From the sequence record MK524178.1: a stretch of 64,000 nucleotides of DNA. One strand, 5' to 3'. A program made the translations under genes and the position numbers. The notes beneath the pieces were generated by a model that was not told where the DNA came from, ran no database searches, and was given only the letters and a program-made list of their open reading frames with translations. This DNA is from Escherichia phage PHB12. Below, piece by piece: positions 1,291 through 38,587 of the stretch (positions are counted from its first letter, which is position 1; each line of letters starts with the position of its first letter).

Positions 1291-2979
1291 TTATGAAACA
1301 GTCATTACAGTAAATCGTCCAACTTTGCTCATTTGAAGATGTTGTCCATAAGCTTGTGGGTCATGGTCTCTGTGACTAATTATAAACACGTTTGCATCGG
1401 TTAGAGAGTTAAGAATTGTTGAAATAGCTTTAATACCTTCAGAATCAGTCGCGGAATCCATGACTTCGTCCATAATTAATGTATTGATTCTAACACCAGA
1501 GACCTTTTCAGCAATATCTCGCCATGTAAACAACAATGCGATATCGATACGCGCTTTTTCGCCTTGACTAAATGAAGCATAACTGAACTCTTCACGGCCA
1601 CGTGATTTTATAGATTCATTGAATTCTTCGTCAATAGAAAACACGTAATCAGCTTCCATGATTTTAAGATAATGGTTAATCTGCTTGTTGAACAGAGGCA
1701 CATATTTTTTAATGATAGCACCTTTAATACCAGAATCTTTTAACATATCTGTGATAATACCACGATGGTATTTTTCAAGAACGATATCTGATTTTGTTTT
1801 AATGATTTTATCAAGTTCTTTTTGAAGCAAAGCTATCTCATCGGCATGGTCGATAAATTCAGCTGAGGCTTGTTCTATTGCAGCTTTAACTTTCTTAGCT
1901 TTATCAATAGTGGCAATCATTGCTTGTTTCTTGGTACGAATATCAGATGCAAGGTCCTGTTTAGTCTTAACATTAGCTCTATATTCGTCCACTAGGACAC
2001 TCAGATTATCTCTGTGACATGTAAGTTGCTCGAATGAGTGATTACATTCTTGAAGCTTATTGGTAATCTTAGAGACAATAGGATCACCCTGGTGCAACTG
2101 TGATGCACAAGTAGGACATGTACCACCGTCATGATACATCTTAATAACTTTGTTATATGAGTCGATTTTAGATTTAATCAAGAATGCTTCTTGTCCGATC
2201 TTGTTGAATGCCTCAGTAGGGTCTTCGTCAAGAACGATATTAAGTAGTCGCTCATTAGCTTCTTCGATTTCTGCTTTTAATGAACGAGCTTCTTTGGCTA
2301 GGTCGTCATACATATTCTGTAGACGCGCTACATTATCACCAGATAATTTCTTTTGACGTTCGATATTCTCGTTATAAATCTTAATTTGTTGGATAATACC
2401 ATCTTTCTTGGCATCGAGAACTTGTCCTTGGGAATTAAGTTCTCGAACTTGAGACTTATTGATTTTATCCATTTCAGCGAGTGTGCCGACTTCTAAAAGG
2501 TCTTCGACAAGTTTTCTACGAGCAGGGGTGCTAAGAGCCATGAAAGGGGTATACCCTGCCGTCCCAAGCACAACGATTTGTTTAAAAGACGAGTATGACA
2601 TTCCGATGCTACGTTCAAATTCTTCTTGGAAGTCCCGACTGCTGGCAGATTCATCAAGACGAACACCGTCAACGGAGATTTCGAAAATATTGGGCTTTTG
2701 GCCACGTTTAATGAAGTATTTTTTATCATCGAATTCCATCCAAAGCTCAACTAAGAGCTCTTTCTTGTTCGTGCTATTAATGATTTGTCCTTTCTTAACA
2801 TCACGAAATGGTTTACCGAAAAGTCCGAAAGTAATGGCTTCTAACATCGTAGATTTACCACCGCCATTTTTACCAGTGATTAATGTCTTTTGGACTTTAT
2901 CTAATTGGATATCAATAGGATTCCCACCTACTGACATGATGTTTTGATAACGAACACGATTTAATTTAAATGATTTCAT
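1291..2979 (-). CDS. 46: recombination endonuclease subunit gp46 (Rad50/SbcC-like ATPase)
   Basis: 562 aa; N-terminal Walker A GKNGGGKST, long central coiled coil with CxxC hook (CPTC), C-terminal ATPase signature region; same size and position as T4 gp46. Confidence 0.9.
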   Translation of the reverse strand: MKSFKLNRVRYQNIMSVGGNPIDIQLDKVQKTLITGKNGGGKSTMLEAITFGLFGKPFRDVKKGQIINSTNKKELLVELWMEFDDKKYFIKRGQKPNIFEISVDGVRLDESASSRDFQEEFERSIGMSYSSFKQIVVLGTAGYTPFMALSTPARRKLVEDLLEVGTLAEMDKINKSQVRELNSQGQVLDAKKDGIIQQIKIYNENIERQKKLSGDNVARLQNMYDDLAKEARSLKAEIEEANERLLNIVLDEDPTEAFNKIGQEAFLIKSKIDSYNKVIKMYHDGGTCPTCASQLHQGDPIVSKITNKLQECNHSFEQLTCHRDNLSVLVDEYRANVKTKQDLASDIRTKKQAMIATIDKAKKVKAAIEQASAEFIDHADEIALLQKELDKIIKTKSDIVLEKYHRGIITDMLKDSGIKGAIIKKYVPLFNKQINHYLKIMEADYVFSIDEEFNESIKSRGREEFSYASFSQGEKARIDIALLFTWRDIAEKVSGVRINTLIMDEVMDSATDSEGIKAISTILNSLTDANVFIISHRDHDPQAYGQHLQMSKVGRFTVMTVS

Positions 2980-22504: not shown

Positions 22505-22807
22505 TTAGATAGATGTAGGCTCTAATTTTATTTTCATGAACTCGGCAAATTGTCTGGCAGTTTTTATGCCTTGTTCATGACATTCAAATGCATCATCACA
22601 GGGGCTATTTTTGTAATGCTTTACCATATACTTATAGAATTTTTCAGAATTCTCGACATTTTGAATTTCAAACAAAGTATATACGTTTTTAATCCCTGAT
22701 TCCATAAAGTTATCAAAATATGGGTCGGTATACGCAGTGCCAACGATAGGAGTTGTTGCTGCAAAAAACCCCAGCATCGCCACAATGGCTATCGCTCTTA
22801 AGGCCAT
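22505..22807 (-). CDS. rI: lysis inhibition regulator rI
   Basis: 100 aa; MALRAIAIVAMLGFFAATTPIVG... signal-anchor plus DPYFDNFMESGI and CxxxxxC pattern resembling T4 rI as recalled; lies upstream of tk as in T4. Confidence 0.65.
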   Translation of the reverse strand: MALRAIAIVAMLGFFAATTPIVGTAYTDPYFDNFMESGIKNVYTLFEIQNVENSEKFYKYMVKHYKNSPCDDAFECHEQGIKTARQFAEFMKIKLEPTSI

Positions 22808-22819
22808 ATAGGCCTCCTG

Positions 22820-23032
22820 TTAATTTTGGCCAGTATTTATTTTTCGCCTTTGGACGGCCTTAACATCTGCGAGGTATTTTTCCAGCTTACGCTTACGAGT
22901 ATAATCTGCTTTAGAACCGGTTTGACGGATATCCTCATTTAAATGAGAAATAGAATGTCCTAATTCTCTTCGGATTTCATCCAATTGGGTTACAGTAAGA
23001 TTACGAAGTTGTCTTTCGTTTAATTGCTGCAT
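22820..23032 (-). CDS. hypothetical protein
   Basis: 70 aa charged ORF. Confidence 0.4.
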
Positions 23033-23056
23033 ATATACCTCTTGGTTAGATATTAG

Positions 23057-23064
23057 TATTTATA
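23057..23064 (-). promoter_or_regulatory. T4-type late promoter TATAAATA (minus strand)
   Basis: Plus-strand TATTTATA at 23057-23064, overlapping the 3' end of tk. Confidence 0.4.
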
Positions 23065-23641
23065 ACAACCCTGTCAAATCATTCCAATGCTTCCGGCATA
23101 ATGACACATATCTATCGGTGTCACCAATTTCAATTTGACTGCCATCTGTAATTGGAAGTCCGTCTTCAGTGACTCTAGCTACCATTGTGGCCTTTTTACC
23201 ACAATGACAGACACCTTTAAGTTCAACAAGCTTATCGGCAATAGCCATTAATGCTTGAGAACCTTCAAATAGATTACCTTTAAAATCTGTTCGTAGTCCA
23301 TATGCCATTACCGGCACATTGTATACGTCAACAATACGACTAAGTTGATACACCTTTTCAGTAGTTAAGAACTGAGCTTCGTCAACAAATACACAATGAA
23401 TATCCTTTTGTGCTGCAGCCCATTTATAGAATTCAAAGATATCCATGTCTTTTGTAATTATATTGGCGTCCTGACGAATACCAATACGAGAGACTATTTC
23501 ACCTTTTGAATCGCGAGTATCAATAGCCGGTTTAAGAACTAATACACCCATGCCACGTTCTTTATAGTTATGTGCGGCAGTAAGTAATGAAGCAGACTTA
23601 CCAGCGTTCATAGCGGCATATGTAAAAATTAAACTAGCCAT
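23060..23641 (-). CDS. tk: thymidine kinase
   Basis: 193 aa; P-loop YAAMNAGKS and C-terminal zinc-ribbon cysteines; same length as T4 Tk. Confidence 0.9.
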   Translation of the reverse strand: MASLIFTYAAMNAGKSASLLTAAHNYKERGMGVLVLKPAIDTRDSKGEIVSRIGIRQDANIITKDMDIFEFYKWAAAQKDIHCVFVDEAQFLTTEKVYQLSRIVDVYNVPVMAYGLRTDFKGNLFEGSQALMAIADKLVELKGVCHCGKKATMVARVTEDGLPITDGSQIEIGDTDRYVSLCRKHWNDLTGLL

Positions 23642-23831
23642 AAGAGTCCTTAGTTAAATTTTCTAAATATGTTTCTAAATCATTTTCAGCTTTATCGATA
23701 GATTTTACTAATTCGTAGTATGTTTCAGCATCTCCATAATCCGAAGCCAATTCAAAAGATAAATCTCGTTCTAAACCAATAATTTCGCTGATTAAAAATC
23801 GTATTTCATTCTTTTGTTCGCGAGTAATCAT
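23634..23831 (-). CDS. hypothetical protein
   Basis: 65 aa acidic ORF upstream of tk; overlapping stop/start. Confidence 0.4.
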   Translation of the reverse strand: MITREQKNEIRFLISEIIGLERDLSFELASDYGDAETYYELVKSIDKAENDLETYLENLTKDSYG

Positions 23832-24019
23832 AAGGAATTTATATAATCAATAAGTTCTTGTTCTTTATCGTCGAAATCTTTACACAGTTCTTCATATTCA
23901 TCGGTATTAAAAGGACCGCATTCATCACAAACTTTTTCCAATTCATTGTTTTTATCCATAACTTCATGAATAAGAGAAAACAGTCTGTCTTTTTGTTCTT
24001 TGCTTAAACTCATAACCAT
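23828..24019 (-). CDS. hypothetical protein
   Basis: 63 aa acidic ORF. Confidence 0.4.
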   Translation of the reverse strand: MVMSLSKEQKDRLFSLIHEVMDKNNELEKVCDECGPFNTDEYEELCKDFDDKEQELIDYINSL

Positions 24020-24237
24020 GTCACCTTTAAGCAGTATTCTTCTACATGTTGTTTACGACCTTTCTTATCAATAAAGGTATATTCAACGAATGTTCCAATG
24101 TAGTCTTTATCTACATCATGTGGACTATTAATTGGGCATTTAGTACGACAAATGCGTTCCCATTGACGAATAATTACTGCCTTATTCTTTGGGTCGTATG
24201 GATGTGGATAATGTATATTCATAATAATGGTTCCCAA
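24010..24237 (-). CDS. hypothetical protein
   Basis: 75 aa ORF. Confidence 0.4.
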   Translation of the reverse strand: MGTIIMNIHYPHPYDPKNKAVIIRQWERICRTKCPINSPHDVDKDYIGTFVEYTFIDKKGRKQHVEEYCLKVTWL

Positions 24238-24716
24238 TCAACAATCACAATTTCTAGTTTAGTGGAATACGTATCTAAAATCTCTTCGATGACAACCCAG
24301 TTTCCACCACCGATACCTGCACCAATTCTTGGCATATAAATTACAGGCTTTGTTATCTTATTCTTTCCGAATTCATTTAATTCTATTATACAATTCATTA
24401 AAGCAAAGTACTCAAAATTAGGTCCCGGCTCAAACTGTGTATAAAGATTAAAGCAATAAGCTTTATGGGTCTTAAAATATTTTTCATAAACCGAATAAGT
24501 CCCGAGTTTAGACTCGTCTCCGAATTCGGTTTGAAGTTTATCGGCTTCTAAAATTTTTGGATAAGCCTTTGCTAATTGTCCTGCCACACCAGCGCCCATT
24601 GTATGAAAACAATTACACCCATGAGCAATATTATTACCTTTAGAAAACAGGGCGACAATATCGCCCTTGATATAGTTTTTAATCACTTGCTGCAAGTCCT
24701 CTAGTATAAGAGTCAA
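24219..24716 (-). CDS. macro-domain protein (predicted ADP-ribose binding/hydrolase)
   Basis: 165 aa; glycine-rich loops GAGVAGQLAKAYP and GAGIGGGNW typical of macro domains. Confidence 0.6.
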   Translation of the reverse strand: MTLILEDLQQVIKNYIKGDIVALFSKGNNIAHGCNCFHTMGAGVAGQLAKAYPKILEADKLQTEFGDESKLGTYSVYEKYFKTHKAYCFNLYTQFEPGPNFEYFALMNCIIELNEFGKNKITKPVIYMPRIGAGIGGGNWVVIEEILDTYSTKLEIVIVDWEPLL

Positions 24717-25026
24717 CTAGACGGTCCACCATAGAATTGCATGCTGCCTTATCTTTAGGTTCCGCCACCGAGCATTCTAATATTTGCCATTTTTTATGAT
24801 ATCGTTTAATTAAGGTAGACGCCTTGAACCTACTAGACGCCCCATCTTTTTCTCCGTCTTTATATGCGTATAACAATTTTTGTGAAAAATCTACTTTACA
24901 CTCTTGACTTTTACCACAATAATCAGATGCCGTTCTGTTTGTATACTCCGTTACATCAGTATATGTAGTATTAGCAAGAGCGTTAAATGAAACCAAGCCA
25001 ACTATTAAAGCCAACATTTTGGTCAT
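24679..25026 (-). CDS. secreted/periplasmic protein
   Basis: 115 aa; N-terminal signal peptide MTKMLALIVGLVSFNALA; four cysteines. Confidence 0.4.
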   Translation of the reverse strand: MTKMLALIVGLVSFNALANTTYTDVTEYTNRTASDYCGKSQECKVDFSQKLLYAYKDGEKDGASSRFKASTLIKRYHKKWQILECSVAEPKDKAACNSMVDRLVDSYTRGLAASD

Positions 25027-25565
25027 TCTTTTATTTCCAGTAGTTTATTTGATTTAAGGTAATTAGCCTTTTCTAGGACTTCAGAAGCATATTTACTTCC
25101 AGCACTTGTCTTCCATCCCGCATTATATGAGGATATAGCTTTTCTTATATCCCCGTTATGTATATTTAACCAATAAGAAAATTCGATATAAGCCCATCTG
25201 GCTGAATTAGACCGCTTAGATAGCATTTTCTTAATTTGGGCATCAGTCATATTATAACCAAGCTGGTTAATTCTTGCCCTCATTGTCGGTAGATAATTTT
25301 GGAACATTCCATACGCATGGTGACCTTTCTTATCTTTAAGATTAATACCGGCAGATGATTCCTGCCATAGTATTGCGGCCATTATGTATCCAAGTCCTTT
25401 CTTATGCATATTTTCATGCGTTTTAAATTTTCCATCCTTAGAAAACTGTTCCCCAAACTGATAAGCATAATTCAAGTTATCGAGTTGGACATTACTAAAA
25501 GTATGCTCGGAGCTATGTGCTGATAACGAAAGAGCAAATAGACCAGCGAGTAGTGCTTTTCTCAT
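25023..25565 (-). CDS. soluble lytic transglycosylase-like protein (SLT domain) with signal peptide
   Basis: 180 aa; signal peptide MRKALLAGLFALSLSA; catalytic-region signature ...AAILWQESSAG...GMFQ...; T4 carries a comparable gene between tk and regB. Confidence 0.65.
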   Translation of the reverse strand: MRKALLAGLFALSLSAHSSEHTFSNVQLDNLNYAYQFGEQFSKDGKFKTHENMHKKGLGYIMAAILWQESSAGINLKDKKGHHAYGMFQNYLPTMRARINQLGYNMTDAQIKKMLSKRSNSARWAYIEFSYWLNIHNGDIRKAISSYNAGWKTSAGSKYASEVLEKANYLKSNKLLEIKE

Positions 25566-25573
25566 GTTTACCT

Positions 25574-26032
25574 CTAGATTTTAATCACTGCTTTAGAAGC
25601 TTTTCCTGGTAGTCGTTTATTGTTAATAATAGCCATTCTGCATTGAAGAGTCTTCATTTTGAATGCTGGATTTTCACGACAAACTGTAAGTCCTAACCAA
25701 AGATTTCCATCAGTTATTTCTAAACGGCCTGGGCGATATTCGACACCTTCGACAAAATCTTCATCAACATCTGGACGGGCCGGCATTGATAAAAATTCTG
25801 CAACTTCTTTAACATGATTTTTTACTTTACGAAATAATTCAAAAACGTAGTTCTCATCTATTTCTCTCTGGATGGCACGATCTAAGAGATGTTGAGAATA
25901 CTTGATATGAAAGCCTGGTAGTCCAAGAGACTTTGCAGCATCTTTTATACCGGCATTTATTTTGCGGAACTCCGTTTCAAAGATTCGACGGAGTTTATTA
26001 CGGCGGATAAAAACGTCTGAATTGATAGTCAT
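25574..26032 (-). CDS. regB: RegB site-specific endoribonuclease
   Basis: 152 aa; MTINSDVFIRRNKLRRIFETEFRKIN...KYSQHLLDRAIQREIDE... matches T4 RegB as recalled. Confidence 0.85.
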   Translation of the reverse strand: MTINSDVFIRRNKLRRIFETEFRKINAGIKDAAKSLGLPGFHIKYSQHLLDRAIQREIDENYVFELFRKVKNHVKEVAEFLSMPARPDVDEDFVEGVEYRPGRLEITDGNLWLGLTVCRENPAFKMKTLQCRMAIINNKRLPGKASKAVIKI

Positions 26033-26060
26033 TTTGATTTCTCCTCTAGTTGACAGGTCT

Positions 26061-26089
26061 ATAGTAACACAACTAGAGGAGAAGTAAAC
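26061..26089 (-). promoter_or_regulatory. early promoter GTTTAC-17-TACTAT upstream of regB
   Basis: Minus strand GTTTACTTCTCCTCTAGTTGTGTTACTAT; GAGGAG RBS follows. Confidence 0.55.
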
Positions 26090-26093
26090 TACT

Positions 26094-26309
26094 TTATTGA
26101 TAAAATGGAGTTAAAGCCCAAGATTCTTTAGATACCATGTTGGCGAAATGCCTCATCTCTTCGATTTGGCGACGACGCTGGTCAGCATAGTCTTCTTCGC
26201 CTTCTTCCTTACAATCTTCAAGGTCTTCTTCAAGATACTTTAAGTATTCACTACAAATTTTGTTGACCTTTTCTTGAAAGTCCAATAACCCAGTAATAGT
26301 AGAAGCCAT
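26094..26309 (-). CDS. hypothetical protein
   Basis: 71 aa acidic ORF. Confidence 0.4.
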   Translation of the reverse strand: MASTITGLLDFQEKVNKICSEYLKYLEEDLEDCKEEGEEDYADQRRRQIEEMRHFANMVSKESWALTPFYQ

Positions 26310-26577
26310 TAGTATTTTTCCTCAGGTCGAAATACTGCACGACATGCCCACATGCTGGCTTCTTTTAGATGTTGCTTAGCATACTTAAGAGCCTGCACTG
26401 CATCCATATCTTCTTTGGTTTGTTGCTCTGATTCATTTTCTTTCAAGATATATGCTTCTTCAATCAGAGCATCAAACATCAATCCAAGACGGACTTCTGC
26501 ATCTTTAATAGCGTTCACTTTACTGATTTTATCATCGGTATGCGGCTTGTAGCCTTTGATGTCTTCAATCGACATAA
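26309..26577 (-). CDS. small protein at the T4 vs.4 (Acb2) position, tentative anti-CBASS sponge
   Basis: Track ORF trimmed to internal ATG (MSIEDIKGYKPHTDDKISKVNAIKDAEVRLGL...), 88 aa; call rests on position between regB and the GrcA-like gene and on size only. Confidence 0.35.
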
Positions 26578-26789
26578 GGAATTTCCTCATCGGTGGCAAG
26601 GTCATATTCGACCAATTGGATAGGCTCGTTAATACCATATCCACGTACAGTGATATCGGTTGTCGGATATTTTCCAGTAATATCACCCATTCTAAATGCT
26701 TCAGTGAATGATTGCTCGCCTGAGCAACTAAACCAGGCGGCAAAACATTTTAAAACATCTTCAGACCCTTCTATAATCAATTTAGCCAT
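26565..26789 (-). CDS. hypothetical protein
   Basis: 74 aa ORF. Confidence 0.4.
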   Translation of the reverse strand: MAKLIIEGSEDVLKCFAAWFSCSGEQSFTEAFRMGDITGKYPTTDITVRGYGINEPIQLVEYDLATDEEIPYVD

Positions 26790-27151
26790 TATAGACTCTC
26801 AGTAAAGGTACGAGCGATAACGTCGCGTTGCTGTTCTGGAGTCAGAGAGTTAAAGCGAACTGCATAACCGGATACACGGATGGTCAGCTGTGGATATTTT
26901 TCCGGATGCTTAACTGCATCTTCCAGAGTTTCACGACGCAGAACGTTAACGTTCAGATGTTGACCACCTTCAATTTTAACTTTAGGTTGATGTTCAATTT
27001 CAATTTCACGGGCATTCAAACCGTAGAAAATTTCCGGGTCTACAATAGCGTCTTCTTTAAAAGTCTTAGAGACGATAATCCGGGCTTGAGTACCGTCTTC
27101 AAAATAAATAGTGCCTTTATGTGCACCTTCAAGAATTTGATATGCTTTCAT
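26789..27151 (-). CDS. autonomous glycyl-radical cofactor (GrcA/YfiD-like)
   Basis: 120 aa; C-terminal glycyl radical motif [25 protein letters not shown], as in pyruvate formate-lyase C-terminus. Confidence 0.8.
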
Positions 27152-27157
27152 ATAACC

Positions 27158-27466
27158 TCAATTAGAAAATAAATTTATCCAAGATTTTTCTTTAATCAAA
27201 AATGGGTCGGAATTAAACGCCATTAAACTTTGAGTGATTAATCCCTTAAATGGCCCATCAATAAATTCCATTTTGAAATGTGGAATACTAGTCATCAACC
27301 GTGCATTAGGAGCAGTACAAAGAACGTGCTGCCCTGCGAACGGACCTTTAGTCAAACGATATCGTTTAGGTTTAAAATGGTAAATCTCGTAATTTTCTAC
27401 AAGAGCCCTTTTATTGCATACTGGGCTGTTATAACAATACTCAAAAACTTCAATAGTGGTCATCAT
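27158..27466 (-). CDS. hypothetical protein
   Basis: Track ORF trimmed to internal ATG (MMTTIEVFEY...) giving ATGA overlap with the upstream gene. Confidence 0.4.
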   Translation of the reverse strand: MMTTIEVFEYCYNSPVCNKRALVENYEIYHFKPKRYRLTKGPFAGQHVLCTAPNARLMTSIPHFKMEFIDGPFKGLITQSLMAFNSDPFLIKEKSWINLFSN

Positions 27467-38349: not shown

Positions 38350-38426
<77 letters not shown>

Positions 38427-38432
38427 CGAATA

Positions 38433-38506
38433 TATGACCCAGACCAGATTCGAACTGGTAACCTTTCCCTTATGAGGGGACTGCTGCTAACCGTTGAGCT
38501 ACAGGG
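38433..38506 (-). tRNA. tRNA with CAT anticodon (Met or lysidine-type Ile)
   Basis: Hand-folded: acceptor GGCCCTG/CTGGGTC (one mismatch), anticodon loop CTCATAA, T-arm ACCAG-TTCGAAT-CTGGT; D-stem has one C-C mismatch. Confidence 0.6.
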
Positions 38507-38587
38507 CCTAAATAACTTTCTATTATGAAAGGCACTTTAGAGCACCTTTGGTAATAGAGGGTATGAATTAATAATAACACATAATTC

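Follow-up and report, generated by a model that had tools for sequence, protein, structure and literature searches.

The tk.4 gene of Escherichia phage PHB12 encodes a free-standing ALC1-like macrodomain orthologous to T4 AdfM

DarTG is a common toxin-antitoxin defense that ADP-ribosylates phage DNA. In a transposon library of phage T4 grown on a DarTG2-expressing host, tk.4 was the single significant hit; a clean tk.4 knockout turns DarTG2-sensitive, and the gene was named adfM (10.1101/2025.11.20.689424, a 2025 preprint). In the same study, tk.4 was dispensable for T4 on plain K-12, its importance being specific to DarTG2, and the enzymatic removal of ADP-ribose from DNA by T4 AdfM was inferred as what "seems likely" (10.1101/2025.11.20.689424). 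The phenotype of the knockout fits the observation that T2 and T4 resist DarTG2 without depending on AdfA and AdfN (PMC11825919). The name AdfM has also been given to the Lys-type macrodomains of chimalliviruses, which have been shown to remove DarT2 marks from DNA (PMC13309987). The Gln-type macrodomain SCO6735 of Streptomyces coelicolor is faster than DarG or TARG1 at hydrolyzing the thymidine-linked ADP-ribose of DNA, and it rescues cells from DarT; Gln85 and Asn27 are needed, an activated water has been proposed, and the protein additionally inhibits DarT through binding (PMC9411070).

The window analyzed here, i.e., the whole stretch of 64,000 nucleotides from Escherichia phage PHB12 (MK524178.1), harbors the Mosigvirus ortholog of T4 Tk.4 (AdfM). 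The gene was already known, in that a macro domain is annotated in near-identical GenBank genomes and the T4 ortholog has a published function. The window protein and T4 Tk.4 (NP_049723.1) are identical at 128 of 155 positions (83%), over their full length and without gaps, and they share the motifs HGCNCF, MGxGVAGQ, NLYTQ, and PRIGAGIG; the 27 substitutions include a lysine of T4 in place of G127, in the phosphate loop (GKG versus GGG). This degree of identity, together with a dN/dS of 0.074 in the comparison with T4, where synonymous sites are near saturation, indicates that the tk.4 homolog is expressed as a protein and that the purifying selection on it is strong. Both genes occupy the same site, between vs and tk.3. 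The order of the genes on the minus strand (regB, vs.1, vs, tk.4, tk.3, tk.2, tk.1, tk, rI.1, rI) is identical to that of T4, and the 3.1 kb around tk.4 share 97-98% identity with the Mosigvirus (RB69-group) phages vB_EcoM_SQ17, SF, HX01, and moskry.

In the list of open reading frames, the gene appears as a 165-codon ORF on the minus strand (24219..24716), beginning at the first TTG past a stop, and an earlier note on this DNA had taken this whole span as the macro-domain protein. The portion 24219..24686 (minus strand) holds as the gene: it is a CDS with a GTG start, encoding 155 amino acids with one macro domain, the TAA stop being included in the coordinates. The remaining in-frame extension up to the TTG (24687..24716, minus strand) coincides with the 3' end of vs and carries the Shine-Dalgarno sequence of tk.4; it is probably not translated as part of the tk.4 protein. 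A TTG start at 24716 was dropped in favor of the GTG at 24686 on the basis of four lines of evidence, which make a product of 155 amino acids likely. Firstly, the homologs less than 90% identical all align, in tblastn searches, from residue 11 of the 165-aa ORF. Secondly, T4 tk.4 starts at the equivalent codon (an ATG in T4, a GTG in the window), with an in-frame TAG directly before the ATG. Thirdly, a Shine-Dalgarno GAGGA is located ahead of the GTG (24697..24701), and T4 carries GAGGA at a near-equivalent position, the spacer to the start being 10 nt here versus 11 nt in T4. Lastly, the record of Mosigvirus moskry has an annotated CDS of 468 nt at this locus, in agreement with 24219..24686. 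The GTG overlaps the stop codon of the upstream vs gene (GTGATTAA), as the start codon of T4 tk.4 likewise does, suggesting that the two genes are translationally coupled.

The match to Pfam Macro (PF01661) covers residues 32-141 of the 165-aa ORF with 23.8 bits versus a gathering cut-off of 22; the margin is small, and the macro assignment is backed by 353 homologs, many of them with a precomputed PF01661 hit. Both glycine-rich peptides that had been quoted as macro-domain loops are present in the translation of the ORF. The protein also matches PHROG 335 (E 4.8e-65), and tblastn retrieved matches in 2773 phage records. The GenBank relatives call the gene "macro domain protein", "phosphatase", or "hypothetical protein", and the RefSeq note on T4 tk.4 reads "contains A1pp phosphatase motif". 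A profile search of a 5.8-billion-protein database gave 5058 hits; the 120 matches listed are all close family, and named DarG or SCO6735 sequences are absent among these 120 of the 5058. DarG was the sole hit in PADLOC (2e-7, profile positions 5-145 of 329), and the DarG antitoxin equivalog NF048014 the sole one in NCBIfam, with 27.8 bits versus a cut-off of 250 and a match confined to profile positions 4-146 of 338, i.e., to the macro domain alone. Membership in the DarG family was rejected, the protein being far under the equivalog cut-off and having neither the catalytic Lys, nor the second domain, nor a darT neighbor.

The tk.4 product is a free-standing macrodomain of the ALC1-like class, 155 amino acids long. 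Its AlphaFold2 model (pLDDT 95.8), built on an input alignment from which the T4 sequence was left out, has the predicted three-layer alpha/beta/alpha macro fold, and its closest structural and sequence neighbors are those of the ALC1-like class (TARG1/DarG/Poa1p/SCO6735). On this side, the comparison figures were 18.1 for BT1257, 17.6 for Poa1p, 17.1 for M. tuberculosis DarG, 16.6 for Thermosipho DarTG, and 16.5 for TARG1; viral macrodomains gave 13.8 and below, and, on the MacroD side, the figures were 11.8 for Af1521, 11.7 for MACROD2, and 9.9 for MACROD1. Foldseek, whose top hits were human TARG1/OARD1 (E 3.9e-10) and yeast Poa1p (E 1.3e-9), and a family-profile search of PDB sequences agreed with this grouping. 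The protein is not of the MacroD/Af1521 type, previously proposed for comparison: neither the motif of this type (Nx6GG[V/L/I]D) nor closest structural similarity to it was found in the tk.4 product, which shares with it the general macro fold and the ADP-ribose-binding loops.

In order to compare the active sites, the window and T4 proteins were aligned (MAFFT) with DarG, SCO6735, BT1257, and TARG1, whose sequences were taken from PDB alignment printouts, and with PhiKZ gp104, taken from the genome record; TARG1 was also aligned by HMMER. Conservation refers to a set of 167 sequences, i.e., 166 database homologs and the window protein. The loop 1 region HGCNCFHTMGAGVAG (24579..24623, minus strand; residues 22-36, confirmed by translation) contains H22, N25, and the first glycine-rich loop. 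H22 and N25 are equivalent to His24 and Asn27 of SCO6735, and N25 also to N22 of DarG and N23 of PhiKZ AdfM; N25 is kept in 166 of the 167 homologs and G33 in all of them. The translated NLYTQ motif (24435..24449, minus strand; residues 80-84) is invariant at N80, Y82, and Q84 (167/167). Q84 aligns with the catalytic Lys of TARG1 (K84), DarG (K80), and PhiKZ AdfM (K78) according to HMMER and MAFFT, and in the alignment it corresponds to the essential Gln85 of SCO6735 and to the Gln of BT1257. In an hhalign comparison between the family profile and PhiKZ gp104, Q84 was shifted one column from K78; we consider the pairing of the TQ with the TK motifs by HMMER and MAFFT more reliable. The phosphate-binding loop 2, PRIGAGIGGGNW (24297..24332, minus strand; residues 119-130, confirmed by translation), includes G122 and G124, equivalent to Gly126 and Gly128 of SCO6735, while the position of TARG1 D125 is occupied by G126, with no Asp. 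In macro domains, two glycine-rich loops clamp the diphosphate and the distal ribose of ADP-ribose; the segments MGAGVAG (30-36) and GAGIGGG (122-128) align with these loops in TARG1, DarG, and SCO6735, with G33, G122, and G124 unchanged in all or nearly all of the 167 sequences. The Gln was also found in all eight distant phage homologs sampled (from Schitoviridae, Felixounavirus, Angelvirus, Kuttervirus, Otagovirus, PBS1, RaK2, and Certrevirus).

The Gln at the catalytic position and the conserved Asn (Q84/N25, corresponding to Gln85/Asn27) are those of the SCO6735/BT1257 subclass; however, the mobile loop with Lys89 and the loop-1 Lys34 of this subclass were not found in the phage protein by alignment. 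SCO6735 and Bacteroides BT1257 (PDB 5E3B, 2FG1/2AFC) are encoded by cellular genes and are just 22-31% identical to the phage protein, whose post-Gln loop is 5-6 residues shorter than their mobile, Lys89-carrying loop and which has Ala32 at the position of the DNA-contacting Lys34 of SCO6735. Given the missing lysines and loop, the mechanism of SCO6735 may not be fully transferable to the phage protein. The DarG2 macrodomain (T. aquaticus 5M31/5M3E, M. tuberculosis 5M3I) and PhiKZ AdfM gp104 show an identity of about 18-23%; they have the catalytic Lys (K80/K78) in FPTK and a PPLG motif, whereas the phage protein has Gln in LYTQ and a PRIG motif, and it has neither the DarG-type C-terminal DarT-binding domain nor an adjacent darT, its neighbors being vs and tk.3. 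TARG1 and Poa1p, which are eukaryotic and have other physiological substrates, share the H-x-C..MGAG and MPRIGCG motifs with the phage protein, but the K84/D125 dyad of TARG1 is replaced by Q84 and G126.

It is quite probable that the phage macrodomain defeats DarTG2-type defense by erasing thymidine ADP-ribose via a Gln-type site, as an orphan antitoxin. On infection, the host toxin DarT2 ADP-ribosylates thymidines in single-stranded phage DNA, thus blocking its replication; the macrodomain would most likely hold the ADP-ribose in the cleft formed by the two glycine-rich loops and hydrolyze the ribose-thymine bond, restoring the DNA. By analogy with SCO6735, Q84, held by N25, would position the distal ribose, and the reaction might be started by a water molecule instead of a catalytic lysine. 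The Mosigvirus copy would be expected to confer the same DarTG2 phenotype as that of T4, and it would hydrolyze thymidine-linked ADP-ribose, with a putative catalytic role of Q84. The DarTG2 sensitivity of the T4 knockout lends support to the earlier proposal that a phage macro domain could reverse ADP-ribosylation, and the protection test against DarT toxins suggested at that stage matches the preprint result for T4 tk.4 (10.1101/2025.11.20.689424). In a review, RB69 is listed as a target of DarTG1, and T5/SECphi18 as targets of DarTG2 (PMC9967889); this division would accord with a functional anti-DarTG2 gene in RB69-group phages.

Hydrolysis is not the sole possible route, since catalytically dead SCO6735 still inhibits DarT by binding: the Q85A variant of SCO6735 inhibits DarT in vitro, as do DarG K80A and TARG1 K84A, SCO6735 being the strongest (PMC9411070). 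Moreover, for AdfA and AdfB, the other anti-DarT factors of phages, the proposed action is a block of DarT activity and not an enzymatic one (PMC11825919, PMC13309987). That the phage macrodomain might act mainly through stoichiometric binding and inhibition of the DarT2 toxin, rather than through hydrolysis of the DNA adduct, is nevertheless unlikely, given that N25, G33, Q84, G122, and G124 hardly vary, if at all, among 167 homologs from many phage groups, a pattern expected of an enzyme and not of a surface for binding a particular toxin, and that the DarG match (positions 4-146 of 338 only) includes no counterpart of the C-terminal DarT-binding domain.

T4-type phages ADP-ribosylate host proteins, a fact counting for a different substrate, in that the macrodomain might be a protein de-ADP-ribosylase, either tuning the marks left by Alt, ModA, and ModB or undoing those of a protein-targeting defense ADP-ribosyltransferase. 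However, Alt, ModA, and ModB modify arginine, and we know of no ALC1-like macrodomain that cleaves arginine-linked ADP-ribose. Although the substrates of TARG1 and SCO6735 extend to proteins with Glu/Asp-linked ADP-ribose (PMC9411070), this type of substrate is very unlikely to be the main one, as T4 tk.4 is dispensable on K-12 and important specifically with DarTG2 (10.1101/2025.11.20.689424). Even less probable is an enzyme acting on small molecules, i.e., a Poa1p-like ADP-ribose-1''-phosphate phosphatase or an O-acetyl-ADP-ribose deacetylase, as the labels "phosphatase", "A1pp", and "regulator of RNase III" in the databases would imply: these labels stem from domain-level transfer rather than experimental work, we know of no source of Appr-1''-p during infection by T4, and the DarTG2-specific phenotype of the T4 knockout would be left unexplained, while such side activities in vitro would be compatible with a role on DNA. 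The least probable reading is RNA de-ADP-ribosylation, directed against an RNA-targeting ADP-ribosyltransferase defense or editing ModB-type RNA-protein links, for although two papers (PMC11833690, PMC13036486) document RNA ADP-ribosylation and macrodomain-type erasers, and the neighbors regB and vs act on RNA or translation, tk.4 is known to matter in one situation alone, the presence of DarTG2, whose target is DNA (10.1101/2025.11.20.689424).

The gene is the counterpart, in the RB69 group, of a T4 gene annotated as macro/A1pp for years, with an anti-DarTG2 role assigned in 2025, and it represents nothing categorically new. The new point is modest and concerns the aligned Gln of the T4-type proteins, which stands where DarG, TARG1, and the chimallivirus AdfM have the catalytic Lys. 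This replacement points to a water-mediated mechanism of the SCO6735 type and defines the mutants Q84A and N25S. T4-type AdfM has a Gln as in SCO6735 and a short loop of the DarG/TARG1 type, without the DNA-clamping lysines of SCO6735; it might tentatively represent a distinct active-site solution among the anti-DarT macrodomains, which we regard as conceivable though rather doubtful. The Gln-for-Lys site and the short loop suggest that two macrodomain lineages may stand behind the phage erasers. If T4-type AdfM is such a distinct solution, the recruitment of ADP-ribosyl-DNA erasers by phages would have taken place on at least two occasions, each time from another macrodomain lineage, and the widespread Gln type could have broader or different substrates than the DarT2 marks alone (e.g., other base-, RNA-, or Glu/Asp-linked ADP-ribose left by further defense ADP-ribosyltransferases). 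Knowing which genes erase the DarTG mark helps in predicting host range and hence bears on phage therapy with T4-like phages.

As to the variation within the family, the tblastn identities to the window protein are split between 225 records at 80-90% and many T4-like phages at 56-57%. The Tequatroviruses harbor two very different tk.4 alleles; as an example, those of Escherichia phage vB_Eco_OMNI12 (121..600) and T4 (2423..2890, both in the coordinates of the retrieved records) encode proteins ~88% identical over the first ~48 residues, ~45% identical after these, and 58% identical overall. Judging from the sequences, this split looks like the outcome of mosaic recombination within the gene or of arms-race diversification.

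The vs gene, directly upstream of tk.4 (24679..25026, minus strand), encodes the valyl-tRNA synthetase modifier according to the ORF list and to the T4 and moskry annotation; its product has no Pfam match, and, in the T4 transposon study, vs ranked first among the genes conditionally essential in minimal medium (10.1101/2025.11.20.689424). Further upstream, the product of the vs.1 homolog (25023..25565, minus strand) has an N-terminus resembling a signal peptide and weakly matches the SLT lytic-transglycosylase model (E 1.3e-3; at 18.8 bits, under the cut-off of 21.3); its names in the GenBank relatives disagree ("endoribonuclease", "RegB domain-containing", "lytic transglycosylase", and "hypothetical"). 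Directly downstream of the macrodomain gene lie tk.3 (24010..24237, minus strand; DUF7202) and the tandem paralogs tk.1 and tk.2 (23634..23831 and 23828..24019, minus strand), for which DUF7438 matches were obtained with E values of 2e-14 and 3.4e-19. A promoter scan of 22800..27200 gave 11 sigma-70-like sites versus 16 expected by chance.

Codons 7-13 of tk.4 (24649..24667, minus strand) contain a terminator-like hairpin (AGGGCGAUAUUGUCGCCCU) with a U-run behind it, ~20 nt into the CDS and just past the vs stop. T4 and Tequatrovirus OMNI12 have this hairpin unchanged, whereas it is lost in Kosakonia phage 305 and Klebsiella phage F48. A functional RNA at this position is improbable in view of this loss, which occurs without compensatory pairs, and of the folding z-scores of just -1.4 to -1.8; the hairpin probably arises incidentally from the codons for KGDIVAL. 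Elsewhere in the window, only two tRNA genes are present, the adjacent tRNA-Arg(tct) and tRNA-Met(cat) (38352..38508, minus strand), versus the cluster of eight tRNAs that T4 has in the corresponding region, which indicates a reduced tRNA set in this lineage.
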